Shown piece by piece: positions 20,126 through 60,314 of a DNA stretch of 64,000 nucleotides. Position 1 is the stretch's first letter. Each line of letters opens with the position of its first letter. Source of the stretch: an uncultured virus (IMG/VR IMGVR_UViG_3300047356_001345) (lineage: Duplodnaviria > Heunggongvirae > Uroviricota > Caudoviricetes); IMG/VR virus record IMGVR_UViG_3300047356_001345. One strand, 5' to 3'. A program made the position numbers and the translations under genes. The notes under the pieces were generated by a model. The model searched no databases, was not told the origin of the DNA, and saw nothing but the letters and a program-made list of their open reading frames with translations.

Positions 20126-20473
20126 ATGGACGAACGTCTTGAAAAAGCCCTTGAGATAAGCAATTATATGGTTACCTTGAATAATCAAACAAGAATCTTA
20201 AAAGAACAATACAAAGAAAATCTTGTTTTGTATTACAAAGGCGGTCAATTTTCCATTACTCGTGAACTTATAAGTTTTTGTCAAAGCTTACTTTCATTAA
20301 AACAAGAGTCAACTATTATTATTGATGATAATGATATACCTGTTGAATGCGAAGACTTACAAGAATTTACAAATGCAATTCTTAATAATTATCAATCATA
20401 TTCAAATAGATTCCTAACAGAATACAATAAACTTATGAATGAAAGATCTGTTGAAAGTATTATGAATTTATGA
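20126..20473 (+). CDS. Hypothetical protein (115 aa), first gene of the enzyme island
   Basis: Clean ORF with AGGAGA SD downstream of a sigma70-type promoter; function not recognisable. Confidence 0.6.
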   Translation: MDERLEKALEISNYMVTLNNQTRILKEQYKENLVLYYKGGQFSITRELISFCQSLLSLKQESTIIIDDNDIPVECEDLQEFTNAILNNYQSYSNRFLTEYNKLMNERSVESIMNL

Positions 20474-21288
20474 GTCAAGGTGTACTATTATTTGCATTTA
20501 ACAATGAAAGTATAAATTACGTAAACCAAGCTATTTTTTGTGCGAACCGCATACAAAAATATCTACAATTACCTGTGAGTTTAGTAACCAATGTTGACGT
20601 TGACAACAAGTGTTTTGATCAGATTATAAAAGTAGAAGATGGATTAACAAGCAGAAAAGCATACCGAGATGGTTCATTAAACAAACGTGTTCTTAATTTT
20701 AACAATTACGGCAGAGAGCATAGTTTCGACTTATCTCCTTATGAAGAAACTATTGTAATGGACACTGATTATATAATAGCAAATGATAAATTGTTAAATT
20801 GTTTTACACAGCAAAAAGATCTTTTGTTATACAAAGATGCAACACATTTAGGAATACACAATGGCACACCTGAATTTAAATCTATTAGTGACGGCGGCAT
20901 AGATTTTTATTGGGCTACTGTAATATATTTTAGAAAAAACAACACAAGTGAAGTTTTTTTTAATTTAGTTAAACATATAAAAGAAAATTATATACACTAT
21001 AGAGGTGTGTATCAATTTAAAAATACTGTGTACAGAAATGATTTTGCATTTAGTATAGCAGTGCATATACTATCTGGATACACAGAAAACAATTTTGTTG
21101 GTACAATACCTGGCAAAAAGTTTTATGCAATTGATAGAGACATACTTCTATCAATAAAAGACGATGCATTTGATTTACTAGTAGAAAAACGAGACAGACT
21201 TGGGGAATACACTTTTGTAAAATTTAAAGGCAGTAATTTACACGTTATGAATAAGTTTAGTTTAGCGAGAGTTATCAATGAGCAATAA
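20470..21288 (+). CDS. GT-A fold glycosyltransferase-like protein (GT8-like)
   Basis: SPYEETIVMDTDY DxD motif; YWATVIYF; RNDFAFS. Confidence 0.65.
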   Translation: MSQGVLLFAFNNESINYVNQAIFCANRIQKYLQLPVSLVTNVDVDNKCFDQIIKVEDGLTSRKAYRDGSLNKRVLNFNNYGREHSFDLSPYEETIVMDTDYIIANDKLLNCFTQQKDLLLYKDATHLGIHNGTPEFKSISDGGIDFYWATVIYFRKNNTSEVFFNLVKHIKENYIHYRGVYQFKNTVYRNDFAFSIAVHILSGYTENNFVGTIPGKKFYAIDRDILLSIKDDAFDLLVEKRDRLGEYTFVKFKGSNLHVMNKFSLARVINEQ

Positions 21289-22123
21289 CTTTACAATGCT
21301 TGCACAGAACACAGATGTTGATTATGTACAACAAGCATATTTAAATGCTATGAGTATTCGTGCTACTAACGAAAATGCAAAAATATGTTTAATAACCAAC
21401 GATACAGTGCAAGACAAATACAAACAAATTTTCGATGATATTGTAGAAATACCTTGGGGAGATCACGCTAAAGATAGTGATTGGAAAATAGAAAATAGAT
21501 GGAAAACATATCACGCAACTCCATATGACGAATCATTAGTTATGGATACTGATATGCTTGTTTTGCAAGATATTAGCAGTTGGTTTAACTTTTTAAAAAA
21601 CTATGATTTGTTTTTTACAAGTAATGTTTACACTTATAGAAACGAACTTGTAACAAATGATTACTATAGACACACATTTGCAAAAAACAAACTACCAAAT
21701 CTATACAGTGGATTACATTATTATAAAAAATCAGATACTGCACACGAGTTTTACACCTGGCTAGAAATGATAACAAATAATTGGCAACAATTTTATAGAC
21801 AACACACCGGCGGTAAAATGTATCAACGTAAATGCAGTATAGATTTATCAAGTGCTATTGCTGTAAAGATTATGGGCATAGAAAGTCAAGTAACAAACCC
21901 ACGTGCTAAATATCCTAGCTTTGTACATATGAAGCCAAGAATACAAAATTGGCAAAACAGTGTAGTTGATAAATGGCAAAATCGTGTAGGCACATATTTA
22001 GGTGAAGACTTGCAACTTAAAATAGGCAATTATACACAAGCTGGAGTTTTTCATTATACAGAAGATGACTTTGTAGTTGACCGTATAATTAACATATATG
22101 AAAAGTATTTAGGAATACAATGA
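21278..22123 (+). CDS. GT-A fold glycosyltransferase-like protein (GT8-like), paralogue of 20470
   Basis: TPYDESLVMDTDM DxD motif; LYSGLHYYKK; C-terminal FHY. Confidence 0.65.
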   Translation: MSNNFTMLAQNTDVDYVQQAYLNAMSIRATNENAKICLITNDTVQDKYKQIFDDIVEIPWGDHAKDSDWKIENRWKTYHATPYDESLVMDTDMLVLQDISSWFNFLKNYDLFFTSNVYTYRNELVTNDYYRHTFAKNKLPNLYSGLHYYKKSDTAHEFYTWLEMITNNWQQFYRQHTGGKMYQRKCSIDLSSAIAVKIMGIESQVTNPRAKYPSFVHMKPRIQNWQNSVVDKWQNRVGTYLGEDLQLKIGNYTQAGVFHYTEDDFVVDRIINIYEKYLGIQ

Positions 22124-22680
22124 GAATTACAATTAGCACTGATAGATACGTTTGTTTTGATGAAAACGGTGTAATTGATAAAGTTACACGCAACCCTGAT
22201 GAAAACTTTGAAAACTTATTAGTAGATTTTGAGCAAGTTCGTCATTTTGCAGAAGGCAAAGAATCACTTCGTGATTATAAAGTTGAATATGACTTTATTG
22301 AAAAAAGATATGTATTAAAAAGCAAACAGCAGTATAACGAAAGTTTTAATACACAAAATTTTGTTTACGAAATACCAAAAGAAATCAAAGACACTTACGA
22401 AGTTAAAATAAAACAAAATAACAAAAGTAAGTGCTGGGAATTAGAACTGAACAAAGACTTTGAAAATTATGTGCAATCTCAAAAAATCTCTATTAATCCT
22501 AGCAATCAGGTATACAGTGTAACAAAGTTATTCGATCCTAACGTTTTGTATAAAACATTAGATTTCTCTAAAACAAAAAAAATACCTTTTACCAGTAAGT
22601 TTGAAATTGACAATATTAACGTAAGCCTTTATACTATAAGAAAGTTTTCTACATACTACCACGAGGTTATAAATGGCTAA
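22120..22680 (+). CDS. Hypothetical protein (186 aa)
   Basis: ORF coupled to neighbours by overlap; no recognisable motif. Confidence 0.55.
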   Translation: MRITISTDRYVCFDENGVIDKVTRNPDENFENLLVDFEQVRHFAEGKESLRDYKVEYDFIEKRYVLKSKQQYNESFNTQNFVYEIPKEIKDTYEVKIKQNNKSKCWELELNKDFENYVQSQKISINPSNQVYSVTKLFDPNVLYKTLDFSKTKKIPFTSKFEIDNINVSLYTIRKFSTYYHEVING

Positions 22681-23596
22681 TACATTCCGTGTAATTGATT
22701 ATGATATTGTTTATCTTAGTTACGATGAACCAAATGCAGAAAAAAATTATGCAGATCTGTGCAAAAAAGTTCCGTGGGCAAAACGTGTACACGGTGTCGA
22801 AGGATCTGATGCAGCTCATAAGGCTTGTGCTGAATTAAGTGAAACTGATCGATTTATTACTATTGATGGCGATAATTGTATTAGAGATGATTTCCTTTCA
22901 CAAGCAATAGACTTTGATGAAAATTTAGATTTAACAGATAAAGTTATAAGTTGGACTGCAAAAAATGTTATAAATGGCTTGAGCTACGGTAATGGAGGAA
23001 TAAAATGTTGGCCAAAGCAATATGTTCTTGATATGCGTACACACGAAAATGCACCTGCAGATAATCAACACGCTCAAGTTGATTTTTGTTGGAATACACA
23101 ATATGTACAGATGAACGGAACTTTTAGCGATGTACATAATAATGCTACACCTCATCAAGCGTGGCGTGCTGGGTTCCGTGAAGGCGTTAAGATGGCACTA
23201 GATCAAGGACTACGTGTAACAGTTGACGAATTTAAAAATAATCATTGGAAAAACTTGCATCGTTTATACATCTGGCAAATGATTGGTGCAGATGTAGAAA
23301 ATGGACGTTGGGCTATTTACGGAGCAAGAGAAGGTTTATATAAAACTATGTGTACAGATTGGGACTTTGTAAATGTACGTGATTTTAAATGGCTAAACAA
23401 TTATTGGGACAACAAAGAGTTAGATGAAGATCAAATGGAACAGGACACAGTTGACCTTGGATATTCGTTAATAGATGAACTAGATTTGCCTATTGCTGCC
23501 GAACCATTTGATGGAAATCAAAGCAAGTTTTTTAAAACAGTATATCAAAACCCTGCACGTGACAACAGCAAACAATTCTTAGATAGAGAACAGTAA
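22673..23596 (+). CDS. Glycosyltransferase-like protein (GT-A fold)
   Basis: DIVYLSYDEPNA...RVHGVEGSDAAH...FITIDGDN (DxD); homologous to the C-terminal domain of 27057-28697. Confidence 0.55.
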   Translation: MANTFRVIDYDIVYLSYDEPNAEKNYADLCKKVPWAKRVHGVEGSDAAHKACAELSETDRFITIDGDNCIRDDFLSQAIDFDENLDLTDKVISWTAKNVINGLSYGNGGIKCWPKQYVLDMRTHENAPADNQHAQVDFCWNTQYVQMNGTFSDVHNNATPHQAWRAGFREGVKMALDQGLRVTVDEFKNNHWKNLHRLYIWQMIGADVENGRWAIYGAREGLYKTMCTDWDFVNVRDFKWLNNYWDNKELDEDQMEQDTVDLGYSLIDELDLPIAAEPFDGNQSKFFKTVYQNPARDNSKQFLDREQ

Positions 23597-24969
23597 TGGA
23601 ACGTAGCGAAAGCGAAGAAATCAAGCGTATCGATAAGATTACGCAGGAAATATCTCCAACGTTTTGTTTTGCTAAATGGTATCACGCAAACATATATTTT
23701 CAAACAGGTGAAACACACAGTTGTTATCATCCTGCTCCTCACAAGATTGATACAGCACCGCTACTGGAAAATCCTAGTGCTATACACAACACAGCACAAA
23801 AGAAAGCAGAACGTGCTGCTATGATGAAGGGCGAACAGCCCAGTGGATGCAACTATTGCTGGAAGATTGAAGCAATGGGTAAAGACTATGTTAGTGACAG
23901 AAAACAACGCAATCAAACTATTTTCTTTAAACATAGATTAAATGCTGTTAAAGAAGGTGGTGCAGAGTTTGATGTTAATCCAGAATACTTAGAAGTTTCG
24001 TTTGGCAACGAGTGCAACTTCCGTTGCGGATATTGTCATCCAAAAGCAAGTAGCAGATATTATCAAGAGATCAAGCAACACGGTCCTTATGATATGGTAA
24101 AAAATCATAGATGCGACATTGATTGGTTTCAAATATTTGAAGAAGAAAATAATCCATATTTGGATGCATTTTGGAAATGGTGGCCCGAACTTAGTAAAGA
24201 TTTACATATACTACGTATTACAGGTGGCGAACCGACTATCCAGCAAAGTACATATAGATTATTTGATATGCTTGATGCAGATCCGAAGCCAGAATTAGAA
24301 CTTAATTGTAACAGTAACTTAGGCGGCAAACCGAAACAATTAGCAAAATTTACAGATCGTGTAAACAACTTGTTAACAAATAATAAGATTAGACGTTTTA
24401 AAATGTTTACAAGTATTGATACTTGGGGCAAACGTGCAGAATATATTCGTGATGGATTAGACATTGAAGTGTTTGAACGCAACTTAGATTACTTTATGCG
24501 TAATTGCGAAGCACCGATGGTTTTAATGATTACATTTAATATTTTTAGTGTAACAACATTCCGTACACTGTTAGAAAAAATATTAGAATGGCGCAAAAAA
24601 TACAATAATGTCGATACACATAGATGGCAACGTTTGGGGTTTGATACTCCACATTTAAAAGAACCTTTACAATATGATATGAATATTTTGCCAAAAGAAT
24701 ATCTTAGTTATATGCGTGATCATTTGCAATTTATTAAAGAAAATGTAGACGACGAACGTAAAGATGCGTTTAGTACAATTGAGTATGAAAAGTTTAGACG
24801 TGTGGTTGACTATATGGAAAAAACAGAATATCCATTAGAAAAGATTATACAAGGAAGACAGGATTTTCATAAATTTTTTAAAGAACAAAATCGTCGACGC
24901 GGAGTAAATCATATTGAAGTTTTTCCTGAAATGGCAGATTTTTTTGATTTATGCGAAACTTATGTTTGA
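23596..24969 (+). CDS. Radical SAM enzyme with N-terminal Twitch/SPASM-like Cys domain
   Basis: CNFRCGYC, ITGGEPT; N-terminal FCFAKW...SCYH...GCNYCW. Confidence 0.9.
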   Translation: MERSESEEIKRIDKITQEISPTFCFAKWYHANIYFQTGETHSCYHPAPHKIDTAPLLENPSAIHNTAQKKAERAAMMKGEQPSGCNYCWKIEAMGKDYVSDRKQRNQTIFFKHRLNAVKEGGAEFDVNPEYLEVSFGNECNFRCGYCHPKASSRYYQEIKQHGPYDMVKNHRCDIDWFQIFEEENNPYLDAFWKWWPELSKDLHILRITGGEPTIQQSTYRLFDMLDADPKPELELNCNSNLGGKPKQLAKFTDRVNNLLTNNKIRRFKMFTSIDTWGKRAEYIRDGLDIEVFERNLDYFMRNCEAPMVLMITFNIFSVTTFRTLLEKILEWRKKYNNVDTHRWQRLGFDTPHLKEPLQYDMNILPKEYLSYMRDHLQFIKENVDDERKDAFSTIEYEKFRRVVDYMEKTEYPLEKIIQGRQDFHKFFKEQNRRRGVNHIEVFPEMADFFDLCETYV

Positions 24970-25564
24970 AGTAAAATTATACAATAACGATATAGACCTA
25001 ACTGATTTTTTTATTGAAGCACACAAGAAAAAATTCTATAATAACAGCAGCCAAGAAATGCTTATAGATTATATTAAAAAATACGAAGATGCAAAACTTT
25101 GGTTATTACTTTTTAATAATAGAGTTGTAGGAACAGTAGTTGCACATAAATTAGAAGAGTTAGGAATACTAGGAAAAAATGCATACCGTATCGGTGCAAG
25201 AACTTGTGTGTTAACTCATTTAATCGGAAAAGATAGAGTAAAGAGTCTTAAAGGGAAGACCGATATACATTATTCACACGCTTCGCAATTTTTGTTGCCT
25301 GCTTGTATTGAAGGCATCGGTAGAGATAAACCTTTATATCTTAGCACACACACCGGTGATGTCGGTAGTCAAAATAAAGTGCATAATTTTTGGGCAAAGT
25401 ATTTTCACAAAGCAGGTGTTCTTCAAAATCCTGTAGAGCTTGAATACAAAGGAACATTTCAAACTTTTTGGAAAATTAATGTTGATAAATTTTACGAAAC
25501 TTTATCTTCGACTAGGTGGCCAGAAGCCGAAGCAGTTATTCCTATCCTAAATCAACCCAACTAG
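24962..25564 (+). CDS. GNAT-like protein (likely start MFEVKLY at 24962)
   Basis: WLLLFNNRVVGTVVA...YRIGARTCVL...QFLLPACIE pattern, loosely like 55966-56625; ATG overlaps the upstream stop. Confidence 0.4.
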   Translation: MFEVKLYNNDIDLTDFFIEAHKKKFYNNSSQEMLIDYIKKYEDAKLWLLLFNNRVVGTVVAHKLEELGILGKNAYRIGARTCVLTHLIGKDRVKSLKGKTDIHYSHASQFLLPACIEGIGRDKPLYLSTHTGDVGSQNKVHNFWAKYFHKAGVLQNPVELEYKGTFQTFWKINVDKFYETLSSTRWPEAEAVIPILNQPN

Positions 25565-26990
25565 TTCCATTGTATCCTTGAAACTTTTTGGTTGATTTAT
25601 TAAATATAATCATACCTTCATCTGCATAATCAATATCAGTTTTTTCTGCTTCTGTAAAACCTTTTGACTTCATAATTGGCACTGCTAAAACACCCTTACC
25701 GTCAAAATTTAATCCTGTTGGATTATCCCAAAATGCACTAGGCAAATTTTTTCCATCGCTTAACGTAATTGCAAAATCTGTTGGATATATTTCTAAGTCT
25801 GGATCTGGTGTTACGTCTGTGTTTGCATAAAAACCAAAGCCGCCTCCGATTTTATATGACAATCCGTCCCAGGCGTGACAAGTGTTTACCATCAAATGAT
25901 CTCCAGGATTAAGTGGAAGCATATTTTCGTGGTCACCGTTGAAAGCAAAATAATTTACTTGTCCTAAATTAGAAGTGTTAACCGGGTTTGATTGAAGTTT
26001 ATAACTTATATTGTCAGCATATACTTGTATTGTTTCTGTGCTGTTGTAACCAATATTGATTTCACCTGTCGAACCGCCTTCGAGTCTAACTTGTCCTTCA
26101 TTTACAGTCAGCACTGGTGCTCTATTTTCATCAATTACTTGGCCCATTACACAACCATTAAATTCTGCAAGTATACTTGGTTTATCTGTACCATCATAAT
26201 CTAGCAATGTAAGTACAGGAGAATCATCATACCAATTTATGTTTCCTGTATACATAGTTTCTCTGTCAGTATTGCCTAATTTTAAAACAGATTTGTGCGA
26301 ATCAGGATGTTCTAATCCTGCTCTAATAACGTGATGTCTTAGTGTAGAATTCCACGTTAATACGTGTTCATCTGTGTCTGGAGTTAATATACCACCTTTT
26401 AAATTTCCATTTAAAGTACCGTTGGAGCCATTAAGCATAATGTTGCCTTCGCCGTCAACTACATCACCACGTAGATCACCTGTTACATTACCCATTACTT
26501 CGCCCGAGTGTGTACCATTACTTGATCCGATTAGATTGCCATTAACTGTTCCGCTAATAGATCCTACTAACTCAACTTCTCCGTGATGAGTTCCATATAA
26601 ATCTCCTACTATTCTATCTACAACCAACGTATTTGTTGACGCATCGTAAATCATATCGCCGTTAGTGTTAACTAAATTACCTTCAAAATTTCCTTTTAAC
26701 AAACTCCGTTGTACATCTACTACAACGTTATTGTTAGAATCTTTTAAATTACCGACAACATCCATATGAACTGTACGACTACTAGCATTTACTAGTACAT
26801 CACCTTCTTCATTCTCAACATTTCCTACCATAGGACCGTATAGCTTACCAAATGTTGTATCAACTTGAATAACGCCATCTCTGTTAACAACATTTGCTTT
26901 AATTTGGCTTAGCCAGCTATCAATAATTAATGTGCTATCAGCACCTACAATATCAATTCGATACGAATCTCCGGGTATAAAATCAGTCAT
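25542..26990 (-). CDS. Virion fibre-like structural protein inserted in reverse orientation
   Basis: G-x-L-x-G-x-V repeats; C-terminal GMIIFNKSTKKFQGYNGTSWVDL shared with 62293-64000; own TAAATA motif and GGAGA SD. Confidence 0.65.
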   Translation of the reverse strand: MTDFIPGDSYRIDIVGADSTLIIDSWLSQIKANVVNRDGVIQVDTTFGKLYGPMVGNVENEEGDVLVNASSRTVHMDVVGNLKDSNNNVVVDVQRSLLKGNFEGNLVNTNGDMIYDASTNTLVVDRIVGDLYGTHHGEVELVGSISGTVNGNLIGSSNGTHSGEVMGNVTGDLRGDVVDGEGNIMLNGSNGTLNGNLKGGILTPDTDEHVLTWNSTLRHHVIRAGLEHPDSHKSVLKLGNTDRETMYTGNINWYDDSPVLTLLDYDGTDKPSILAEFNGCVMGQVIDENRAPVLTVNEGQVRLEGGSTGEINIGYNSTETIQVYADNISYKLQSNPVNTSNLGQVNYFAFNGDHENMLPLNPGDHLMVNTCHAWDGLSYKIGGGFGFYANTDVTPDPDLEIYPTDFAITLSDGKNLPSAFWDNPTGLNFDGKGVLAVPIMKSKGFTEAEKTDIDYADEGMIIFNKSTKKFQGYNGTSWVDLG

Positions 26991-34792: not shown

Positions 34793-34797
34793 AAATA

Positions 34798-34811: not shown

Positions 34812-34824
34812 AAGTGCGCATATT

Positions 34825-44111: not shown

Positions 44112-44130
44112 TATTTCTATTAAATAATAG

Positions 44131-45477: not shown

Positions 45478-45482
45478 AAGTT

Positions 45483-49121: not shown

Positions 49122-49132
49122 GGAGATGTATT

Positions 49133-49783: not shown

Positions 49784-49786
49784 TAT

Positions 49787-52462: not shown

Positions 52463-53216
52463 TTACATTGTCACAGTTGATATTGAATATAACAAAGAAT
52501 ATTTGCACGAATGTTGTCAAAGCATAACCCACTGGCCTTTATACTCAAATGATAGAGGTAAAACTTTATTCAGTGAACACAAAGATATAGTATTTCCTTT
52601 AAATGTAGAAGCAATAAAAATAAAAAATAAATTATTACACACAAGCACATACAGCTTTAGTTATATACCACCGGGGCACGAAACAGGATGGCACAGTGAT
52701 TTTACTAGGGGCGCCACATTAATCTTACCAATAGATCCTAATCCGCACTTGATTAAATTTAAAATTGACGAGAAAGAAGTAGATTATTATTATAGTACAC
52801 CGGTTATCACAAATGCAGACAGTATACACAACGGTGTAAATTATACCGATCAACCTAGGTACAATTTGTTGTTTCATATTGACAGGACTTATAGCGATAT
52901 GATAGATATAATTAGCAACGATGATTTGATATCAAAGTGGAAACAAGATTATAATATTGGACAAGATTATAATAATGATATGGTGCAAAAGTTTTTTGAC
53001 ACACACGATAATTTAGACGATGCTACTATAATTATTACAGACAAAAATCACATTGCTGATTTGCATAGAGATAAATTTATAATCTTTATTGGCAATAATG
53101 AAAATTACACCTGTATTGACTTGAAACAAAATGTCAACGATAAAGATATTGTAAACGCAATAAAATATATTTTAGATAGTACGTGTAATATTAAAAAAAT
53201 GGTATTAGGAAAATGA
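52455..53216 (+). CDS. 2OG-Fe(II) oxygenase-like protein with extra C-terminal domain
   Basis: WHSD...LILP...IHNGVN...RYNL; C-terminal DIVNAIKYILD resembles the last helix of the neighbouring SDRs. Confidence 0.6.
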   Translation: MDDYIVTVDIEYNKEYLHECCQSITHWPLYSNDRGKTLFSEHKDIVFPLNVEAIKIKNKLLHTSTYSFSYIPPGHETGWHSDFTRGATLILPIDPNPHLIKFKIDEKEVDYYYSTPVITNADSIHNGVNYTDQPRYNLLFHIDRTYSDMIDIISNDDLISKWKQDYNIGQDYNNDMVQKFFDTHDNLDDATIIITDKNHIADLHRDKFIIFIGNNENYTCIDLKQNVNDKDIVNAIKYILDSTCNIKKMVLGK

Positions 53217-53755
53217 GTAATTATGTTTTCTTAAAAGAACTATATGTGGACTATGATGAGATTAAAGCCGTGGTTGATGACAAGTCAGGATGGGTAGAAA
53301 TAGCACCAGAAGAAGAAAATAGAGGATATGTACAGTATTACAAGCAATATGAACCTCAATGGTTAAAAGATCAATTATTGCCAATCTGGAGTTATATGGG
53401 ATTATTAGTTGCCTGTAGAGCAGGAGAGTATTTGCCACCTCACGTTGACAATGGCAGAACCTGTGCAATTTTAATTCCTTGCAGCGAAAGTTATAAAAAC
53501 AATACACTGGATTTTTATCATATGCCAGATTGGAAAGGATCTGAAGGTGACTGGCAAGACTGGAAACAAAAACACAATGGTTCTATTATTGAAAGTGTAA
53601 TGTACAAAGATCCTATTCTTTTTAAAAATATTCCTCACGGGGTGGATAATACAAAAAGCAAACATCCTAGAATAAATTTTAGTGTGTGTTTTATGCCTCC
53701 TTACACTTTTGACGTAGTAAAAGATTTGTATGATAAAGGAAATTTAATTGTATAA
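53213..53755 (+). CDS. 2OG-Fe(II) oxygenase-like protein
   Basis: PPHVD...AILIP...PHGVDN...RINFS. Confidence 0.65.
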   Translation: MSNYVFLKELYVDYDEIKAVVDDKSGWVEIAPEEENRGYVQYYKQYEPQWLKDQLLPIWSYMGLLVACRAGEYLPPHVDNGRTCAILIPCSESYKNNTLDFYHMPDWKGSEGDWQDWKQKHNGSIIESVMYKDPILFKNIPHGVDNTKSKHPRINFSVCFMPPYTFDVVKDLYDKGNLIV

Positions 53756-54506
53756 ATTACTTAACGGTCCTCTTGCTGAAAATTATAATAGAAATTTACT
53801 TCCTGATTATCTTAGTATTCAAGAAAGAACTGATTATGAGAAAAATAAAACACAATTAGGATCACAATGGAATTATTATGATAAAGAAGTTTCTTACAAG
53901 TTAAATTCTAACTTTTATAGAGATGCCGAATGGAATGACATAAATTGGGAAGACTCTATTGTGATTTTTGGTTGTAGTCAAGTCTTTGGAGAAGCTTTAG
54001 CTATTGAAGAAACTATTTGCCAGCAATTGAGTGATATTGTAAAAAGACCTGTAATAAATCTTGGACAAAGCGGCACCAGCACAATTTTTAGTTGGCATAA
54101 TAGTCTTAAATTTTTTGAAAATTTTGGAATTCCGCATACTGTGATACAATTATGGACAGATTATGGTAGATTATTATATTACGCCGATGATAAAATTAAT
54201 CGTATAGGACCTTGGTCTGGCAGTCATTGGGATAATTACAACAATGATATGAAAGTTTTGTATAAAATATGGAATAAAAATCTTGTTCATTCTCAACAAT
54301 TTTTTAAATTTGAAGCATTAGCTTGTGAACACTTTTGGAGTTCTAAAACAAATTATTATCAAGCAAGTTATTTTGAAGAAACTGCAAATCTTTTAAAGTG
54401 TGATTTTTTTCCTAAATTAGATGATGCAAGAGATTTTTTACATTTTGGAAAGTTAACACACAAAAATGCAGCAGAGGTTATAAATGAAAATTGCAATTTA
54501 CGGTGA
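53748..54506 (+). CDS. SGNH/GDSL-like hydrolase or acyltransferase
   Basis: IFGCSQVFG (block I), INLGQSG (block II), DFLH (block V, DxxH). Confidence 0.6.
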   Translation: MYKLLNGPLAENYNRNLLPDYLSIQERTDYEKNKTQLGSQWNYYDKEVSYKLNSNFYRDAEWNDINWEDSIVIFGCSQVFGEALAIEETICQQLSDIVKRPVINLGQSGTSTIFSWHNSLKFFENFGIPHTVIQLWTDYGRLLYYADDKINRIGPWSGSHWDNYNNDMKVLYKIWNKNLVHSQQFFKFEALACEHFWSSKTNYYQASYFEETANLLKCDFFPKLDDARDFLHFGKLTHKNAAEVINENCNLR

Positions 54507-55167
54507 TAGTTTTGGTGCAAACCCTATAGGTGTAAAAGACTATTCACAATATCCTTTTGTAAAGCAAAGTTGGTGGGAATTACTTTCTGAAAAATATGAC
54601 ATAACAAACTTTTGTGAATGGAGTGCTAGTCTTTTATTTTCTGCAGAACAGTTTACAAAAACACACGAGAGATTTGATAAAATTATTTTTTTAGTCACGC
54701 ATCCTAGAAGAATAACAATTAAAGATACTAATAAGACTAGACACTTTGTAAACTATGAGTATAGCACATTTTGGAAAGAAGATGCTGCAAAACAAGGATG
54801 GAATGATATATTAGATGCTGCTTTATATTATTACAAGTATATTGAAAACACAGAATATTCAAATTTCCAACACATTTCATATCTCAACTACATAAAAAAC
54901 TTACGTAAAGATATTTTGTATATTCCGGGTTTTAAAGACAGTTTTGATAACAATTTTTGCTTGTGTGATGTTTTTGACAAAGAACAAAAATATTGGAAAA
55001 CAGATTATAATATAGGAAAACTAGATCTAAGAAAAGGACACTTTACAAATTCAAACCATAAAATTATGTACAACATATTGGATAATTATATAGAATATAA
55101 TAAATTTGATATAGATTTGTCTATGTTTGTTAATCCTGATTTGCCAAAAAGAAAGTATATAATATGA
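54484..55167 (+). CDS. SGNH/GDSL-like protein
   Basis: IAIYGDSFG, C-terminal GHFTNSNH. Confidence 0.55.
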   Translation: MKIAIYGDSFGANPIGVKDYSQYPFVKQSWWELLSEKYDITNFCEWSASLLFSAEQFTKTHERFDKIIFLVTHPRRITIKDTNKTRHFVNYEYSTFWKEDAAKQGWNDILDAALYYYKYIENTEYSNFQHISYLNYIKNLRKDILYIPGFKDSFDNNFCLCDVFDKEQKYWKTDYNIGKLDLRKGHFTNSNHKIMYNILDNYIEYNKFDIDLSMFVNPDLPKRKYII

Positions 55168-56000
55168 CGGTGTACAGTTTTTGTCCTAAACCAATAAAAG
55201 ACGAATTAAAAAAAATTAATCTTGTTAATAAAGGTTCTGGTACAGACGTTTCTTTATATAAAAAACATTGGATGGACTGGATAAAAAATTTTAGTGGCTG
55301 CGAAAATAAAAAAGAGTGGGCAATGTGTAATGGTATACACGAGGCACTAACTCATCAATGTGCTCACATACACAGTAAATATGATCAATTTTATTATTTT
55401 GATACAGATTATAAATTTTATTACAGTATACTAGATCCATATAAAAACTATTGTATATCTCCAACTGATATAGATAATATCTTGCCAAATAGTTACATAT
55501 TAGTAAGTCAGCCTAATCACGAAGGCGGTATTACTAATTGGTTTAGTAATTTAATAAATCATTGTATAACTAATAATTGTAAAATATTTTTAGATTGTGC
55601 TTTTTATGGATGCACACTTGATACTTTAGATACTAGTTTAGATGTGTTTGATGCAGTTGCATTTAGTTTAAGTAAAAATTTCTTAATGGCCGGTTTTAGA
55701 GCAGGTATTGTATTTTCCGATAGCCTTCCACAAACTCTAACTTTACCAATAGGGCAATACTATAGTTACAATTATTTTAATACAACAGCATCAGAAGTTG
55801 TAAAAACTATACTTCCTAAGTTTCGTGCAACATACATTACAGAAATAGCAAAACCCTTACAAGAAAAATATTGTAATGATAACAATTTAATACCTGCTGA
55901 TATTTGGATGTGGGCATTTAATAGCGTAGGTGAAAAAATTTGTATAACAGATTACATTAAGGATTCTATAGAACAGCAGCTTTTACTGAATCGTCTATAG
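55164..56000 (+). CDS. PLP-dependent fold-type-I enzyme (aminotransferase/decarboxylase-like)
   Basis: SQPN, LDCAFYG, FSLSKNF (Schiff-base Lys), RAG. Confidence 0.7.
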   Translation: MTVYSFCPKPIKDELKKINLVNKGSGTDVSLYKKHWMDWIKNFSGCENKKEWAMCNGIHEALTHQCAHIHSKYDQFYYFDTDYKFYYSILDPYKNYCISPTDIDNILPNSYILVSQPNHEGGITNWFSNLINHCITNNCKIFLDCAFYGCTLDTLDTSLDVFDAVAFSLSKNFLMAGFRAGIVFSDSLPQTLTLPIGQYYSYNYFNTTASEVVKTILPKFRATYITEIAKPLQEKYCNDNNLIPADIWMWAFNSVGEKICITDYIKDSIEQQLLLNRL

Positions 56001-56625
56001 TGCCATTATGCATACAGTACAAAATAGTTTTGTAATCTGGTCGCCATACATAATTTTCATCTAATATGTTTGCATATACATATTGTAAAAAGTTAGATTT
56101 TTCACTTACTTTAAAAATCATATCAGGTTGTAATTTAAATGCACGGTAAGTATCGGTCATAAAATACGGAACAGATTCGCCTCGCATACCCATACGTTTT
56201 TTACCTTGATACATTGCATTTAATGCTTTGTTGTTTACATCGTGTGTCCAGTATAATACTTTTAGTCCATTGTCCTTTGCCCATTGTACTTGATTTGGCA
56301 ACATACGAAACCCAGCATTACTATGCCTAAACTTTTTTAAAATATGATATCTACAAATACGTCCTGCAATTTTTGGATCTCCTGTGTAATGACTACGTTC
56401 GACGACACTTACACTTGCAAGCTCGTCCTCTACAAATGTCATCCAAGTTTGTCCATTTACTGTGTCAGGGTCGTATTTGTCGCCGGCAAGTGCTTCATTG
56501 CCGTCACGTTTAGCTAACATCCTAAATTTTTCAATTATATCTCTATCAGATGGATTGTATTCTCTAACGTTTATGTTTTCGTACACTTTTATTTCCAAAT
56601 TTACATCTGTTTCTACATTTGACAT
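55966..56625 (-). CDS. GNAT-family acetyltransferase-like protein (likely start MSNVETD at 56625)
   Basis: RYHILKKFRHSNAG (motif A-like), NKALNAMY (motif B-like); a promoter places +1 at about 56625. Confidence 0.6.
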   Translation of the reverse strand: MSNVETDVNLEIKVYENINVREYNPSDRDIIEKFRMLAKRDGNEALAGDKYDPDTVNGQTWMTFVEDELASVSVVERSHYTGDPKIAGRICRYHILKKFRHSNAGFRMLPNQVQWAKDNGLKVLYWTHDVNNKALNAMYQGKKRMGMRGESVPYFMTDTYRAFKLQPDMIFKVSEKSNFLQYVYANILDENYVWRPDYKTILYCMHNGTIDDSVKAAVL

Positions 56626-56630
56626 ATGCC

Positions 56631-56659
56631 ATAATAACATATATTTAACCAAACGTCAA
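56631..56659 (-). promoter_or_regulatory. Sigma70-type promoter with extended -10, leaderless spacing
   Basis: TTGACG-17 nt-TATTAT with TGn, 5 nt, then ATG 56625. Confidence 0.7.
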
Positions 56660-56670
56660 CTAAATATTTT

Positions 56671-57732
56671 ATGAATTATCCTATTCCTGATACCATATTA
56701 GCAGATGGTTTGAGTTATAACCGAGATTGGTTAGACAGTTTACAGTTTTTAAAAAAATATGTTTGTAAATCTCTTAATGATTTTTGGGAACACGATGGTG
56801 ATATGTTTTGTGAATTAACATCAGATGAATTAAAAAGAGCCAAAGAAACTAAATTAATTTTAGATTGTAGTTGGATAAGTTTTGGCATAGAAAAACTATA
56901 TGAAATAATTCATAACGACTGTATAAAGTATGAGGTGCCTGAATTAAATGTTATACTTTTAACGGCAAATCTAAATAAAGAATACGAAAATTATACTAAT
57001 TGGTTTAACCGTAACTTGTATAAAAACAAAATTAAAACTTATCCATTTCCTGTTTTTATACAAATGGCGCAATCTATCAATAGCAGTGTTGTTGTATCAA
57101 AAATTAAGTATGATAAATTTGCTACTTTTAGTAGGTTTCCAAGAGAGTATCGTAATGTTATGAATTACGAATTAGTTTCTAGGCAACTTCCTGTAGATTT
57201 AAGTCAATCTAAAATTGACGATATAACTATGCAAGAACAATGTAAAAAATACAAAATAGATTATACACATAATGTGTTAAACAAAGATTTTGTAATGGAT
57301 AGAAAAGATTTTACAAATCATAGCCAAGCAATAAAATGGACAGAAAGTTCTAGTAATTTTTTGTCTGAATATAAATTTATTTTAGTACAAGATACTAGCA
57401 TTGATGATTTTGGTTTTTATATTACAGAAAAAGTATGGAAAAGTATGTTATATGAACGTCCTATAATAATTTGGGGGCAGCCTGGTGTTAATCACTACTT
57501 AAAAGAAATGGGATTTAAATTGTATGACAAATATTTTGATTTGCAATTTGACATTGAAAAAGATCACAGTGTAAGATTACAATTACTACTAAAAGAAATA
57601 ACAAGTGCTTGCGAAAGGATGAAACAAAATAATTGGATAGAGTTGGATGTAGATACATTGAGATATAATAAAGAATACTTACTATCTAAAAAATCACTAT
57701 ACAAATGGATAGAGCCTTTAAAATTTATTTAA
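56671..57732 (+). CDS. Glycosyltransferase-like protein, paralogue of 29931
   Basis: FSRFPREYR...YITEKVWK...PIIIWGQPG...MGFKLY...FD. Confidence 0.5.
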   Translation: MNYPIPDTILADGLSYNRDWLDSLQFLKKYVCKSLNDFWEHDGDMFCELTSDELKRAKETKLILDCSWISFGIEKLYEIIHNDCIKYEVPELNVILLTANLNKEYENYTNWFNRNLYKNKIKTYPFPVFIQMAQSINSSVVVSKIKYDKFATFSRFPREYRNVMNYELVSRQLPVDLSQSKIDDITMQEQCKKYKIDYTHNVLNKDFVMDRKDFTNHSQAIKWTESSSNFLSEYKFILVQDTSIDDFGFYITEKVWKSMLYERPIIIWGQPGVNHYLKEMGFKLYDKYFDLQFDIEKDHSVRLQLLLKEITSACERMKQNNWIELDVDTLRYNKEYLLSKKSLYKWIEPLKFI

Positions 57733-58356
57733 ATAATAATTGTAGCCTTTCCACGTGCCTATATCTATCATTTTTCCTTTAGTTACTGTTTGAAACTTTT
57801 GTTCATTTAGCCAACAACCTATTTCTTTTGTTATTTTATTTTGTAAAGATGTTTTGGTAAATTTAATTGTACCCCAACCTGTATTACTATTTGTTTGCTT
57901 TTTTAAAGCTTTAACATCAAACTCTCCGTTATTCAAAAGACGGTCGGCCTTTGTAAAGTTTGGAATGTCATACATTCCGCAAACCACAATATCTTTTATT
58001 AGTAAATCTTTATAATGTGTAGCGGTGGTAATAGTATCAGGTAAGCAAAAAATAAAATCTTTGGCAGGAAAATTTTCAAATACATTATTAATAAATCTAT
58101 TACCGCCGTCACTAGGACCTTTTTGTTCTAATAAATGACAAAAAATATTATTTTGATAATATGCAAGTATATCTTGTTTAAAGACACAACCGTGTCCAAA
58201 AATAATTTTATCTACACCAGTATTGATTAAATTTTGGACACAATGATTTATCACAGGATTGTAGTAATCAAACCCTTTTTGTGGAAGCATTGCTTTACTG
58301 TAAGGAATGTTTAATCTAGTTGCATCACCGCCAACAGGCACAAGTCCAATTATCAT
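57718..58356 (-). CDS. Sugar-phosphate nucleotidyltransferase-like protein
   Basis: LVPVGGDATRL...SKAMLP (GGxGTRL...PK-like), LPD, IDIGT. Confidence 0.7.
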   Translation of the reverse strand: MIIGLVPVGGDATRLNIPYSKAMLPQKGFDYYNPVINHCVQNLINTGVDKIIFGHGCVFKQDILAYYQNNIFCHLLEQKGPSDGGNRFINNVFENFPAKDFIFCLPDTITTATHYKDLLIKDIVVCGMYDIPNFTKADRLLNNGEFDVKALKKQTNSNTGWGTIKFTKTSLQNKITKEIGCWLNEQKFQTVTKGKMIDIGTWKGYNYYLNKF

Positions 58357-58964
58357 AAATGTTCTAAATCGCCAGTTCCGTCTAAACTAAACATTAATGC
58401 AATACGAGGCTTATCGCTGTTATTGTAAACAGCGTGAGGATAACCAATGTTTAAAAAGTATGCATTACCTGCTTCTAACACGTATTCTTCTACTTCGCCA
58501 TTACGTTTAAATTTATTAATTACCATATTATCACTATAAATGGGGCATATGCAGCGCACAGCGTACCCTACATCGTAGTCTACGTGAAAAGGTATCTCTT
58601 TACCCGGAGCAAGTTTAGTGATGCGTACACGGCTTGCAGGCGCTTTACATTGTTCTACAATAGTTTGGATATAACTGTCATTGTAAGCATCTGTTGGTAC
58701 ATTGTACAAGTGTTCTTCTCTACGCTGTAAACGCTTTTTAATACTAGGTTCATACGGCAGTATTTCACTTGGTTCTGTAAGATTAATTTGTTCAAAGTTG
58801 TCATAAACATCTTTAACTAATTCTTCGTGATTCATACAAAGCATAGGGTTAGCACTTCTTACATCAATAAACTTTTCTGCAAGGTTATCACATTCCATTT
58901 GCAATCTCGGCAAATCAATATCCAAACCTAAATTGGCAATTGTCGGTAAATCGTGTTTCTTCAT
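58353..58964 (-). CDS. Asp/Asn beta-hydroxylase-like oxygenase (likely start 58964, ATGA overlap)
   Basis: RVRITKLAPG...FHVD...PHAVYN...RIALM. Confidence 0.78.
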   Translation of the reverse strand: MKKHDLPTIANLGLDIDLPRLQMECDNLAEKFIDVRSANPMLCMNHEELVKDVYDNFEQINLTEPSEILPYEPSIKKRLQRREEHLYNVPTDAYNDSYIQTIVEQCKAPASRVRITKLAPGKEIPFHVDYDVGYAVRCICPIYSDNMVINKFKRNGEVEEYVLEAGNAYFLNIGYPHAVYNNSDKPRIALMFSLDGTGDLEHL

Positions 58965-59716
58965 TTTATACTTTCTGCAAGGCATATTCTTGCTGTTTTT
59001 CCATCACGCATAAATTTTGCGTATTCTTTATTTTTAGTTGTAGCAAGCCACACACTATCGCTTGGTACAAAATCTAATTCTTCACAAATTGCTTTTTGTT
59101 TATTATATAACTTACTATGTATATAGTCAATATCAAAATTACTTATTACATTTTCTGCTATATTGTGCGCATAATAATTATAATATTTTGCACTGTGTGT
59201 TAATGATTCTAATCTTTCATCCGGAGTTTTTGTAAATATCCAACCTGTTCGGACATTGCGTAAACCGAACGCTTTTGACAAACTAAAGAAAACATACTCA
59301 ACATTGTCTAATTTGCGTATATGTTGTATCTTAGTGCTTCCAACATACGCTATATCTAGTGCTATTGGAACATCAATTGGTAATTCTCTATAATTTCCGT
59401 TAATTGCACTAGGGACGCTCAAGTATACTATCTTGCCATATCGATCGGTCGGTTTAATCCACTGATAATCACCTTGTTCCATATGTACACCTCTGTACTC
59501 CTGATTATACCACCAGTTCAGTCCTTCTGTACATCCGTTCATAGGATATACACTATATCCTTCTAAATTTATAATGGGACGTAACCATTTGATTATATCT
59601 GTTTTGTAAGGAGAGATACTGTGTAAATCCAAAGTAACAGAATTCACAACTTTTTCTACTTCTGGCAGGACTGGAGTTCTAATTGCTAAACTTTGTTTAA
59701 GTAAAAAATCTTTCAA
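58961..59716 (-). CDS. PLP-dependent fold-type-I enzyme, paralogue of 55164
   Basis: NGCTEG, LDIAYVG, FSLSKAFG...RTG. Confidence 0.7.
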   Translation of the reverse strand: MKDFLLKQSLAIRTPVLPEVEKVVNSVTLDLHSISPYKTDIIKWLRPIINLEGYSVYPMNGCTEGLNWWYNQEYRGVHMEQGDYQWIKPTDRYGKIVYLSVPSAINGNYRELPIDVPIALDIAYVGSTKIQHIRKLDNVEYVFFSLSKAFGLRNVRTGWIFTKTPDERLESLTHSAKYYNYYAHNIAENVISNFDIDYIHSKLYNKQKAICEELDFVPSDSVWLATTKNKEYAKFMRDGKTARICLAESIK

Positions 59717-60314
59717 TAACTACTCCTGCTATATCGTATTTGTGTAATTTATATGATTTCGGTTGCTTATGATGGTTTAAATGCCATCCTTCGCCTGGTG
59801 CAATTAAATTAAGCACAGGAATATTTTGCGGTTCTCCGTCTTTGTGGGCAAAATAATTCAACATTCCGAAGCCCAGCCAAGATAAAACAAACGGAACAAA
59901 AACAATTACAAAAAATAATTTTACACTTATAATAATTGTAATAAGTGTAATTAATAAGTGTAAATATTTTCCGTTTTTATGAAACCAAACTATACGTGGA
60001 TTTTTTAATAAATTAGTAATATATTTACGAGGTATATATTCTACTTTCCAATTACTAGTCAAAACTTTCCAAGCACCTTGATATTTTGGGCTATGCGGAT
60101 CTAGCAAAGTATCTGATTTTGCGTGATGCATTCGATGAACAGCAGCCCAAGTTAATGCACTACGACCGCCGCAGATTAATCCTAAAACTAACATTATTAT
60201 TTCTACAATACTATTTGTTTTAAATGTATTGTGTGTAAAGTATCTATGATATCCTATACTTATTCCTACTAACGCCGCAAACAAATACCATATATATCCG
60301 TAAATAAAGACCAT
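59697..60314 (-). CDS. Membrane fatty-acid desaturase (delta-9 type)
   Basis: Three His boxes HRYFTH, HRMHH and HLNHH, plus DPHSP and hydrophobic segments. Confidence 0.88.
   Translation of the reverse strand: MVFIYGYIWYLFAALVGISIGYHRYFTHNTFKTNSIVEIIMLVLGLICGGRSALTWAAVHRMHHAKSDTLLDPHSPKYQGAWKVLTSNWKVEYIPRKYITNLLKNPRIVWFHKNGKYLHLLITLITIIISVKLFFVIVFVPFVLSWLGFGMLNYFAHKDGEPQNIPVLNLIAPGEGWHLNHHKQPKSYKLHKYDIAGVVIERFFT

Follow-up and report, generated by a model that had tools for sequence, protein, structure and literature searches.

The record and its host-recognition region

The DNA described here is a 64,000-nucleotide stretch (hereafter the window) of the uncultured virus record IMGVR_UViG_3300047356_001345 of IMG/VR (G000; 136,876 bp, 38% complete according to CheckV), corresponding to the minus strand of G000:C1:25888-89887, and our subject is an island of 49 open reading frames (ORFs) between positions 20126 and 60314, nearly all of which encode enzymes, including ten radical S-adenosylmethionine (SAM) enzymes. 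A PHROG scan of the full record identified the major head protein, portal, prohead protease, baseplate hub and wedge, and DNA polymerase of a T4-like myovirus, as well as a gp55-like late sigma factor. The phage is an uncultured T4-like giant marine phage, and the island is located in its host-recognition region. The genes, designated below by their lower coordinate in the window with (-) marking the minus strand, are tightly packed, with 42 on the plus and seven on the minus strand and a largest gap of 66 nt inside the island. The initial annotation, made from the letters alone, had counted about 45 tightly coupled genes, nearly all enzymes, and read them as a single 40-kb pathway. The packing and the enzymatic character were borne out, but only the part from about 20126 to 47800 is conserved and syntenic in relatives, and the interval consists of three parts: a fibre-linked glycosyltransferase (GT) cassette, a conserved core of radical SAM, PP-loop and methyltransferase genes, and a variable right third.

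The island follows a gene for a giant VrlC-like virion protein and a module of fibre genes (Table 1). Fibre and baseplate genes had been noted on both sides; this is the case on the left, with its tail-collar and tail-fibre PHROG matches, whereas on the right the neighbours are an S8 protease with a fibre- and connector-like C-terminus and a structural-like protein. The closest relatives of the S8 protease are found in Synechococcus and Prochlorococcus phages, at 29-39% identity, and are mostly annotated as hypothetical. The G+C fraction ranges from 0.29 to 0.36 along the island and from 0.36 to 0.38 in the fibre genes, with no sharp break between them. Comparison of the fibre region with GenBank phages by blastn gave no match. 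Two very large structural genes are present in the record, the 4592-aa VrlC-like protein and a 2830-aa fibre-like protein encoded outside the window.

Radical SAM enzymes

The count of ten radical SAM enzymes made from the bare sequence was upheld. All ten PF04055 matches of the 136.9-kb record fall inside the window; seven of the ten proteins exceed the Pfam cut-off, the other three are backed by NF033640 or phrog_21308, and the CxxxCxxC motif is intact in every one. Six of them pass the curated cut-off (170 bits) of NF033640 (N_Twi_rSAM, twitch domain-containing radical SAM protein): 23596 (300.8 bits), 33587(-) (250.4), 35916 (424.4), 37315 (209.2), 41091 (240.0) and 44131 (366.5). These six carry a SPASM-like Cys domain that is placed N-terminal to the core and whose Cys residues are conserved; PF13186 SPASM matches the N-terminus of 33587(-), 35916 and 41091, and weakly that of 44131. 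Because their mutual identity is just 21-35%, the six are old paralogues. The other four genes form two pairs, 32514/34825 and 39387/45483.

Profiles of the radical SAM proteins searched against the PDB gave weak matches to anSME, viperin, ChlB and NifB only, and 41091 showed weak matches to genes of KVP40-like vibriophages. We know of no NF033640 member that has been assayed, and membership by itself assigns no function. The key radical SAM orthologue has 2192 protein clusters at E <=1e-10. A 342-kb relative that is 92% complete (G001) carries 14 open frames above the NF033640 cut-off, and four other large relatives have 17-21 matches each (E <=1e-5). The family is thus greatly expanded in this lineage, and the window holds comparatively few of its genes.

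Glycosyltransferases, methyltransferase and sugar enzymes

Six GT-like genes had been proposed, of which the best defined is 27057. Its AlphaFold2 (AF2) model (pLDDT 82) places a nucleotide-sugar transferase fold of the GT-A type at residues 320-480, which is matched by Foldseek to GT2 enzymes (E 3e-5, probability about 1.0) and by VIA with Z values of 9.3-11.4 over the same residues; the DGD motif (D377-G378-D379) is invariant in 11 sequences, and the fold matches include Mimivirus R699 and the chlorovirus hyaluronan synthase. Sugar transfer by 27057 and its homologue 22673 is thus predicted from a modelled fold that also occurs in nucleotidyltransferases such as IspD. The pair 20470/21278 has no Pfam match, and an 18-sequence profile led to glycogenin only (19 of 19 matches, at weak E values of 0.005-0.11); D98 and D100, forming a DxD motif, are invariant in these GT8-like proteins. 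Glycogenin is a protein-glycosylating member of GT8. Atlas searches with the C-terminal domain of 27057 and with 29931 returned viral-only unnamed clusters, with GT2 and GT10 leads that scored below 0.9. The GT-A fold is confirmed for 27057 and, through homology, for 22673, and the labels of 20470/21278 and 29931/56671 are tentative.

The methyltransferase label of 28684 was confirmed by its predicted fold (AF2 model with pLDDT 92; Foldseek matches to NRMT2, NodS and DnrK at E of about 1e-6). The profiles of 27057 and 28684 gave nothing useful against PDB sequences. Residues 1-150 of the protein of 28684-29730 (plus strand) contain three to four tandem helical repeats of about 20 residues each, with a consensus near EDLRKAV.E.NLHS.FRLL, and the homologues in a Ralstonia phage and in bacteria match the catalytic C-terminal half only. 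The small protein 29717, whose start overlaps the end of the methyltransferase gene, is 66-91% identical among 14 relatives; 34 of its positions are invariant and it contains no Cys. The Bdellovibrionales loci and the RsoM2USA locus described below yielded no homologue of it.

The UDP-sugar dehydrogenase named by the initial annotation, 31010, exceeds its Pfam cut-offs. A second sugar-nucleotide cluster lies outside the window at G000:C1:5367-13444, where it adjoins the DNA polymerase gene and encodes a cupin mannose-6-P isomerase-like protein, a cytidylyltransferase-like protein, phosphomannomutase (PMM), a UDP-Glc/GDP-Man dehydrogenase, a GT1 enzyme and an NAD-dependent epimerase/dehydratase. 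Of the 58 proteins of the window, only the desaturase 59697(-) shows membrane segments by Kyte-Doolittle analysis, and because the other 57 are free of them the enzymes are taken to be soluble and cytoplasmic.

Table 1. Genes and features of the window, with their conservation in 80 related viral loci and their counterparts in the Ralstonia phage RsoM2USA
Position	Strand	Feature	Evidence	Related loci (of 80; median identity)	RsoM2USA (identity)
1..11610	+	Giant virion protein, VrlC-like, C-terminal 3869 of 4592 aa; left edge of host-recognition region	phrog_10938 virion structural protein, E 4.5e-242		
11630..20067	+	Fibre module	PF07484 Collar, 67.6 bits; tail-fibre PHROGs; paralogy by sequence comparison		
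11630	+	Conserved 201-aa protein	First gene of fibre module		
12235	+	Tail-collar domain fibre	PF07484		Fibre N-terminus, 38%
14259 and 16264	+	Fibre paralogues	Tail-fibre PHROGs, paralogy		
17791 and 18982	+	Paralogous fibre-associated proteins, candidate acceptors	Paralogy; fibre module		C-terminus of same fibre (17791 type), 33%
20126..23596	+	Fibre-linked cassette, first half	Colinear in RsoM2USA and in 60 viral loci		35-46%
20126	+	Small 115-aa protein	Cassette start		35%
20470 and 21278	+	GT8-like pair	Weak glycogenin profile matches		39% and 36%
22120	+	No assigned family	Cassette position		
22673	+	GT-A-like	Homologous to GT-A domain of 27057, E 7e-34		46%
23596..24969	+	N-twitch radical SAM enzyme number 1, in fibre-linked cassette	NF033640, 300.8 bits; CNFRCGYC		ORF349, 35%
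24914..25564	+	216-aa protein	No family match	28	
25542..26990	-	Embedded Gly-rich, repeat-rich 482-aa protein, putative fibre	Composition and context only; ATAAATA 23 nt upstream		
27057..28697	+	Three-domain protein, C-terminal GT-A fold	AF2 model, Foldseek, VIA, invariant DGD	48; 58%	C-domain, 44%
28684..29730	+	Class I SAM methyltransferase with N-terminal helical-repeat domain	AF2 model, Foldseek	72; 57%	C-domain, 30%
29717..29941	+	74-aa conserved protein	No family match	64; 78%	
29931	+	GT10-like lead only	Atlas lead score 0.82		
31010	+	UDP-glucose/GDP-mannose dehydrogenase family	PF03721 and PF00984 over cut-off; phrog_9148, E 3e-79		
32092 (block 29931..32535)	+	No assigned family	Position		
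32514..47807	mixed	Conserved radical SAM core	Pfam, PHROG, NF033640, motif		
32514, 33587, 34825, 35916, 37315, 39387, 41091, 44131, 45483	+ except 33587 (-)	Radical SAM genes of the core	PF04055/NF033640/phrog_21308 and motif	32514: 75; 67%. 34825: 79; 62%. 35916: 80; 88%. 39387: 50; 70%. 45483: 52; 73%	
38495		PP-loop protein with Cys cluster, core	SGGxDS and four-Cys cluster	53; 60%	
40549 and 47268		Short SDR-like genes, core	At or below cut-off	40549: 41; 74%	
42339 and 42835		No assigned family, core			
43461		Nitroreductase, core	Over Pfam cut-off		
46561		2OG-like, core	Weak match and HxD...H motif		
47804..57732	mixed	Variable right part	Most genes in 0 of 80 loci within 10-kb flanks		
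47804, 48363, 50446, 52455		AspH-type, right part	PF05118 (52455 just under cut-off)		
49133		Nitroreductase, right part	Over Pfam cut-off		
49787		2OG-like, right part	Weak Tet_JBP match		
50978-51469	+	SET-domain protein	43.5 bits, over cut-off; no homologue in the 80 loci		
51899		SDR-like, right part	At or below cut-off		
55164		PLP-like, right part	At or below cut-off		
55966	-	GNAT	Over Pfam cut-off		
56671		Paralogue of 29931, right part	GT10-like lead only (0.82)		
57718..60314	-	Minus-strand block	57718 without assigned family, then trio 58353/58961/59697		
58353	-	AspH-type, trio member	PF05118, 29.5 bits		
58961	-	PLP-like, trio member	At or below cut-off		
59697	-	Membrane desaturase-family protein, trio member	Fatty-acid-desaturase family over cut-off		
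60349..63999	-	Right flank	PF00082, 100.3 bits; PF00127, 28.2 bits; phrog_677; phrog_15006		
60349-62283	-	S8 subtilase fused to cupredoxin-like (plastocyanin-like) domain	C-terminus matches tail-fibre and baseplate-connector PHROGs		
Beyond S8 gene, within 60349..63999	-	689-aa structural-like protein	ATAAATA 37 nt upstream		

Linkage of the island to fibre genes

A viral scan with the GT8-like protein 20470 as query yielded 60 loci at 38-100% identity, of which four that are identical to the window were set aside. Fifty of the remaining loci extend 2.5 kb or more in the upstream direction, and every one of these has a fibre-like gene of the 16264, 17791 or 18982 type no more than 2.5 kb upstream on the same strand. 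Where there is room, the full order is giant protein, 11630, 12235, 14259, 16264, 17791, 20126, 20470, 21278 and 22673. The shortest versions define a minimal island composed of two GT8-like and two GT-A genes, the 45483 and 32514 types, the methyltransferase, the N-twitch enzyme and the 39387 type.

Among 50,697 GenBank phage records, close relatives of the GT-A domain were found only in the Ralstonia jumbo phage RsoM2USA. There, a fibre gene combining a 12235-type N-terminus with a 17791-type C-terminus is followed in order by counterparts of 20126, 20470 and 21278, a 184-aa ORF with no detected match in the window, and counterparts of 22673, 23596 (ORF349), the C-terminal domain of 27057 and that of 28684 (identities in Table 1). 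Ahead of this block, the published genome has the baseplate wedge, a structural protein of 2541 aa, the tail sheath, a GDP-mannose 4,6-dehydratase and a 194-aa structural protein confirmed by mass spectrometry, and the cassette ORFs themselves are annotated as hypothetical (PMC8504454). The C-terminal domain of the protein of 17791-18972 (plus strand; residues 226-379) also recurs in Pseudomonas jumbo phages of the PA5oct group, at 32% identity and annotated as hypothetical, and has a second occurrence elsewhere in RsoM2USA.

Late-promoter motif and expression

The initial annotation had noted a TAAATA motif common to island and structural genes, and this could be sharpened to ATAAATA, the core of the T4 late promoter. 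The heptamer is about 5-fold depleted in the window (11 observed against 54 expected), and eight of the 11 sites are located 10-60 nt upstream of same-strand starts, namely those of 11630, 16264, 25542(-), 34825, 42339, 43461, 47804 and 49133. In the full record 13 of 18 sites precede genes, including those of the baseplate hub and wedge and of the 689-aa structural-like protein. The full T4 late-promoter octamer TATAAATA was rejected as a working motif, having a single occurrence on the wrong strand. From its motifs, and from the gp55-like late sigma factor of the record, the island appears to be expressed late, together with the fibre genes. The adjacency in 50 of 50 loci, the gene order of RsoM2USA and the common ATAAATA support a physical and transcriptional tie between the island and the fibre genes.

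Two oligo-dT RNA libraries from one study and two doubtful RNA libraries contain only 151-237-nt exact fragments of 33600-43500, at a depth of 2-5, and since DNA carry-over is possible these fragments do not establish transcription. At least 99% of the sampled words of 33600-43500 are present in 16 seawater or marine metagenome runs from 14 studies (2017-2025), any of which may be the source of the record, and the genotype appears to be widespread in the sea.

Composite structure and distribution of the island

A scan of viral contigs with the single protein 35916 as query gave at least 175 relatives, of which the best 80 (76-100% identical) were kept; the window proteins were compared with these best 80 of 175 loci by tblastn including 10-kb flanks, many loci being cut by contig ends. 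Genes of the core and of the 27057-29717 segment recur in 41 to 80 of the 80 loci (Table 1), and the embedded gene 25542(-) is conserved ahead of 27057 in relatives. In contrast, 48363, 50978, 51435, 52455, 53213, 55966(-), 57718(-) and 60349(-) were found in none of the 80 within the 10-kb flanks. In G001 the order is, as in our record, head and baseplate genes, giant protein, fibre, 20126-22673 and radical SAM island, and the latter runs across the record ends and continues to DUF2201/AAA, QueE-like, GTP cyclohydrolase I and DNA polymerase genes. The trio of AspH gene 58353 (76% identity), 58961 (54%) and the desaturase occurs in the same order at 128.9-131.0 kb of G001, where its neighbours are PutA, dCMP deaminase, MazG and ornithine decarboxylase. 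Because the trio sits in this unrelated metabolic region, the right end of the interval is regarded as a separate movable cassette. The pan-island content of the relatives includes a NodU-type carbamoyltransferase, an Asn-synthase-like amidotransferase, GDSL esterases and an AMP-binding enzyme. Metabolic genes that are unusual in a phage are found at G001:C1:113951-116800 and in its neighbourhood: that of a full-length, 950-aa PutA combining proline dehydrogenase with aldehyde dehydrogenase, and those of an ornithine/arginine decarboxylase and of a protein resembling Glu/Leu dehydrogenase.

A scan of prokaryotes (one genome per species, query 35916) identified an orthologue with 59-61% identity in three contigs (804, 161 and 36 kb) of Bdellovibrionales metagenome-assembled genomes (MAGs); a fourth match, at 82% identity, is on a 2.9-kb MAG contig that is too short to judge. 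The Bdellovibrionales loci hold homologues of the 27057 C-terminal domain, 28684, 32514, 45483 (65%), 44131 and 39387, and one contig additionally has 40549 and two 38495-like genes. Neighbouring genes encode a SIS sugar-phosphate isomerase domain, a desaturase, an AspH fusion, a GNAT protein and a methyltransferase. No homologue of the fibre genes of the window was found in the three loci at E 1e-6.

Oxygenases and other tailoring enzymes

Nine 2-oxoglutarate (2OG)/AspH oxygenases had been proposed. Four proteins exceed the cut-off of the AspH family PF05118 (22.6 bits), namely 47804 (47.1 bits), 48363 (30.9), 50446 (24.6) and 58353(-) (29.5), and 52455 is just under it (21.1); their metal-ligand motifs were compared with a loose pattern only. 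The paralogues 46561 and 49787 show HxD...H motifs and a Tet_JBP match that is weak (E 0.042 for 49787, far under the cut-off), and the full nine were not reached. The two nitroreductases (43461 and 49133), the SET-domain protein (50978) and the desaturase (59697(-)) were confirmed over their Pfam cut-offs, as was one (55966(-)) of two GNAT-like proteins. Three short-chain dehydrogenase/reductase (SDR) proteins and two pyridoxal phosphate (PLP) enzymes score at or below the cut-offs, and of these labels only the similarity stands.

The label QueC-like for 38495 had to be revised. On its sequence, the protein belongs to the PP-loop superfamily, with a layout that resembles QueC and TtuA: the SGGxDS motif and a four-Cys cluster are invariant, and its profile matches TtuA and AsnB only, weakly, among PDB proteins. 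Membership in QueC itself was rejected, with no match to the PF06508 hidden Markov model anywhere in G000 and PF01171 (E 0.057) as the only match. Four labels were not confirmed. The two SGNH genes have no match in the window; the sulfotransferase-like 42835 had been called from a motif seen by eye that neither Pfam nor the PDB supports; the nucleotidyltransferase 57718(-) reaches E 0.031 only, with no PDB match; and the Gly-rich gene 25542(-), proposed as an embedded fibre, has neither a family match nor a match in GenBank phages, so that the fibre label stays unconfirmed.

Proteins of the GDSL, AMP-binding, TauD and Asn-synthase families occur in relatives but have no counterpart among the window proteins, and the SGNH genes were accordingly not recovered. 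Pfam and a transmembrane (TM) scan found no initiating transferase, flippase, polymerase or transporter family of the Wzx/Wzy/ABC export type among the window proteins. Likewise, neither an RRE/PqqD domain nor a variable precursor peptide turned up in a search of the window that did not extend to small ORFs overlapping other genes; the product of the single small ORF, 29717, is Cys-free, conserved along its full length and unlike the precursor of a peptide that ribosomes make and that is modified after translation (RiPP).

Deazaguanine genes

Outside the window, at G000:C1:14264-16947, genes for a QueE-like radical SAM enzyme, GTP cyclohydrolase I and a phosphoribosyltransferase are grouped. 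GTP cyclohydrolase I was found in all five related records searched, and PTPS/QueD in two of them (G001 and G002). The QueC family PF06508 has no match in G000 or G001, and PF01702 (TGT/DpdA) was found in none of the five at E <=0.01, including the 92%-complete G001, a model that a divergent phage DpdA could escape. By these family matches, the lineage carries an orphan pathway to 7-carboxy-7-deazaguanine. The PP-loop enzymes of the island may, as a speculation, activate a carboxylate, a uronic acid or 7-carboxy-7-deazaguanine.

Proposed function and alternatives

The explanation that we favour, with a probability of about 0.45, is a pathway that operates late and in the cytoplasm, building a glycan on the fibres of the phage itself and editing it by radical chemistry. 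It is favoured because of the sugar enzymes, a link to fibre genes that stays strict in phages whose hosts differ widely, the late motif, the solubility of the proteins and the tailoring families of the relatives; the SIS sugar-phosphate isomerase domain in the Bdellovibrionales version and the pan-island content likewise fit sugar tailoring. The enzyme families, folds, motifs, synteny, promoter motif and lack of membrane segments are observed; that the radical SAM enzymes act on a sugar, which protein is the acceptor and how the steps follow one another are deduced from them, as set out here. Activated sugars would be made by the 31010 dehydrogenase and the NDP-sugar genes beside the DNA polymerase, transferred by the two GT8-like and the two GT-A-fold enzymes, and methylated by 28684. 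The ten radical SAM enzymes would then edit unactivated carbons, aided by the PP-loop enzyme as a putative carboxylate activator and by the short SDR-like reductases. The acceptor would most likely be an upstream fibre-associated protein of the 17791/18982 type, perhaps also the embedded 25542(-), and the product a host-recognition apparatus decorated with a much-tailored glycan. Variable cargo makes up the right third (47804-60314), which may tailor this product further or act on another target.

Several points weigh against this explanation. Product and acceptor are predicted only, late timing is read from the motif alone, several functional labels rest on weak scores, and, as far as sequence comparison reaches, none of the ten radical SAM enzymes resembles a characterized sugar-acting one beyond generic similarity. 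The 50 loci with an adjacent fibre gene are kin, many of them close relatives, and do not count as independent events. The core is found in bacteria in which no fibre homologues were detected at E 1e-6, so that it is a portable unit and its acceptor need not be a fibre. Lipopolysaccharide (LPS) cores, too, are built by GT8 enzymes, on the cytoplasmic face of the membrane, and the missing Wzx/Wzy leaves a host-envelope target possible; AspH, SET and SPASM-like domains are typical of protein-modifying enzymes; and a membrane desaturase, for which a glycoprotein pathway has no obvious place, recurs in these islands. The initial annotation had proposed a glycan or another modification of virion proteins, and of this the sugar enzymes, fibre link and late motif speak for it, whereas the radical SAM core of bacteria without fibre genes does not.

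Some of these points fit remodelling of the host envelope, in which GT8-like and GT-A enzymes, AspH/LpxO-type oxygenases and the desaturase would alter the LPS core, lipid A or another glycolipid from the cytoplasm, a change that could stop superinfection or prevent progeny from being trapped on cell debris. The best-known role of GT8 is in making the LPS core, the glycosyltransferases of which can do without Wzx/Wzy and are therefore compatible with the TM scan, AspH- and desaturase-family genes recur in the island and its bacterial version, and such a role was proposed for glycosyltransferases of the same region (PMC7029224). This is nevertheless unlikely: a cassette tied to one fibre gene both in marine phages and, at 35-46% identity, in RsoM2USA is hard to fit to host-specific LPS acceptors, a late-promoter motif poorly suits superinfection exclusion, and family scans of the window found no lipid A or Kdo enzyme. 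The presence of the core in chromosomes of predatory Bdellovibrionales that lack the fibre genes would also agree with a free small molecule, a sugar-derived or nucleoside-like metabolite resembling aminoglycoside or nucleoside antibiotics and directed against competitors or at control of the host. The mix of radical SAM, carbamoyltransferase, amidotransferase, PP-loop, SDR, PLP, methyltransferase and glycosyltransferase families is typical of such pathways, and in other T4-like phages amidinotransferase genes accompany those of radical SAM enzymes (PMC2853527, PMC12801897). The strict linkage of cassette and fibre, the window's lack of a transporter or export gene and of a scaffold-forming cyclase or synthase, and an expression that, shortly before lysis, leaves little time to act make this unlikely as well.

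Direct modification of fibre or other virion residues by radical SAM, AspH, SET and nitroreductase enzymes (cross-links, epimerization, hydroxylation, methylation), with glycosylation as one step, is in our view rather improbable. SPASM/twitch radical SAM and AspH enzymes commonly modify peptides or proteins, SET is a fold of protein lysine methyltransferases, and bacterial operons of AspH, sulfotransferase and acetyltransferase genes are predicted to modify co-encoded tail-collar or collagen-like proteins (PMC2938197), a tail-collar fibre (12235) being encoded next to the island here. AspH and SET genes, on the other hand, lie in the part that is not conserved, the core occurs in bacteria without fibre genes, and neither a PqqD/RRE domain nor a variable precursor was found, the gaps being at most 66 nt and the small 29717, Cys-free and conserved throughout, making a poor candidate for one. 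Decoration of DNA bases by glycosylation or 7-deazaguanine derivatives, which the initial annotation had rightly ranked as an alternative only, gains little from the data and is highly improbable. The record does encode GTP cyclohydrolase I, a QueE-like enzyme and a phosphoribosyltransferase; a PP-loop enzyme of the QueC-like kind and the Tet_JBP match of 49787 are found in the island; and some modifications of phage DNA involve enzymes of the GT-A and 2OG oxygenase types. PF01702 nonetheless had no match in any of the five related records, one of them 92% complete, family scans of the window found no base kinase, pyrophosphorylase or DNA methyltransferase, the Tet_JBP match is far below its cut-off, and the island has a late structural motif and sits with fibre genes, not replication genes.

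An extension of the fibre-glycan pathway that we give an outside chance would make the N-twitch enzymes a new class of radical carbohydrate editors acting on the fibre-bound glycan, with the PP-loop enzymes ligating carboxylates, resulting in a deazapurine-bearing, radically edited virion glycan. To our knowledge, this chemical class is not known from any virus.

Relation to known systems

The island type had been thought undescribed, but islands with radical SAM cassettes are already in print, with no function given for them. The host recognition cluster (HRC) of pelagimyophages and cyanomyophages is a large hypervariable island directly after a VrlC-like giant protein, with tail fibres, glycosyltransferases, a UDP-glucose dehydrogenase and "cassettes related to radical SAM proteins" (PMC7029224, Zaragoza-Solas et al. 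2020). The same placement, with tail fibres, is found here, and the order recurs in G001 and the 60 loci. Its far boundary is the neck protein gp14; no gp14-like match was noted in the PHROG results of our record, which is only 38% complete. In contrast to the HRC phages, this lineage is larger (relatives of up to 342 kb) and has ten or more radical SAM genes. That paper reads the enzymes as modifiers of the host O-chain and leaves the radical SAM genes unanalyzed.

Arrays of radical SAM genes are likewise known, with 11-12 in the Campylobacter phages CP220 and CPt10 (PMC2853527, 2010) and 12 in a TARA T4-like genome (PMC5332604, 2017). They resemble the present island, by description, in being clustered in an interchangeable module of a T4-like phage, and were read as metabolic helpers or as Fe-S related, with no link drawn to fibres or glycosyltransferases. 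Tandem dioxygenases have been described in cyanophage Syn9, together with bacterial operons of AspH, sulfotransferase and tail-collar genes (PMC2938197, Iyer et al. 2010). Tandem AspH-type and other 2OG oxygenases near a tail-collar fibre, plus an acetyltransferase, are found here as well. In our case oxygenases make up the variable portion of a bigger island of radical SAM and GT genes, the sulfotransferase is unconfirmed and there is no halogenase. A radical SAM core with one auxiliary-cluster domain in a plausible carbohydrate context recalls BtrN, named by the initial annotation, and other twitch-domain radical SAM enzymes that act on sugars or cyclitols; unlike in these, where it is C-terminal, the auxiliary domain is N-terminal here, and no specific sequence similarity was found.

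Virion glycosylation reportedly includes the chlorovirus PBCV-1 protein A064R, said to be a GT-GT-methyltransferase, the fibril glycans of Mimivirus, and capsid and tail glycosylation in mycobacteriophages. The island shares with these systems, judged here from genes alone, soluble GT-A enzymes, a methyltransferase and its own NDP-sugar genes beside structural genes. We know of none among them with arrays of radical SAM, PP-loop or AspH enzymes, and no report assigning a function or product to such radical SAM arrays was found in the open-access literature searched. The HRC island type, radical SAM arrays and tandem dioxygenases are all in print, with a product assigned in none of the papers. 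What the present island adds is its composite make-up, including a trio of AspH, PLP-like and desaturase genes that can move, the statistics of the promoter motif, the fibre adjacency in 50 of 50 loci, the minimal island and the orphan deazaguanine genes. In kind, the system would belong with the glycan tailoring that viruses are known to encode next to structural genes, although its chemistry could prove categorically new.

Implications for phage biology

Phages of this kind are common in the sea, and they devote up to about 60 kb of a 342-kb genome to this set of enzymes, at the place where host range is decided. The minimal island of four GT-like, one methyltransferase and four radical SAM genes, together with the colinear cassette of the cultured phage RsoM2USA, makes the question experimentally approachable, and ATAAATA could serve to map the late transcription units of the lineage. 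If the fibre glycan proves true, it would add a new layer to phage-host recognition and to the protection of the virion, and it would give a first function to a large catalogued family of radical SAM enzymes, which may become a source of sugar chemistry that functionalizes C-H bonds.

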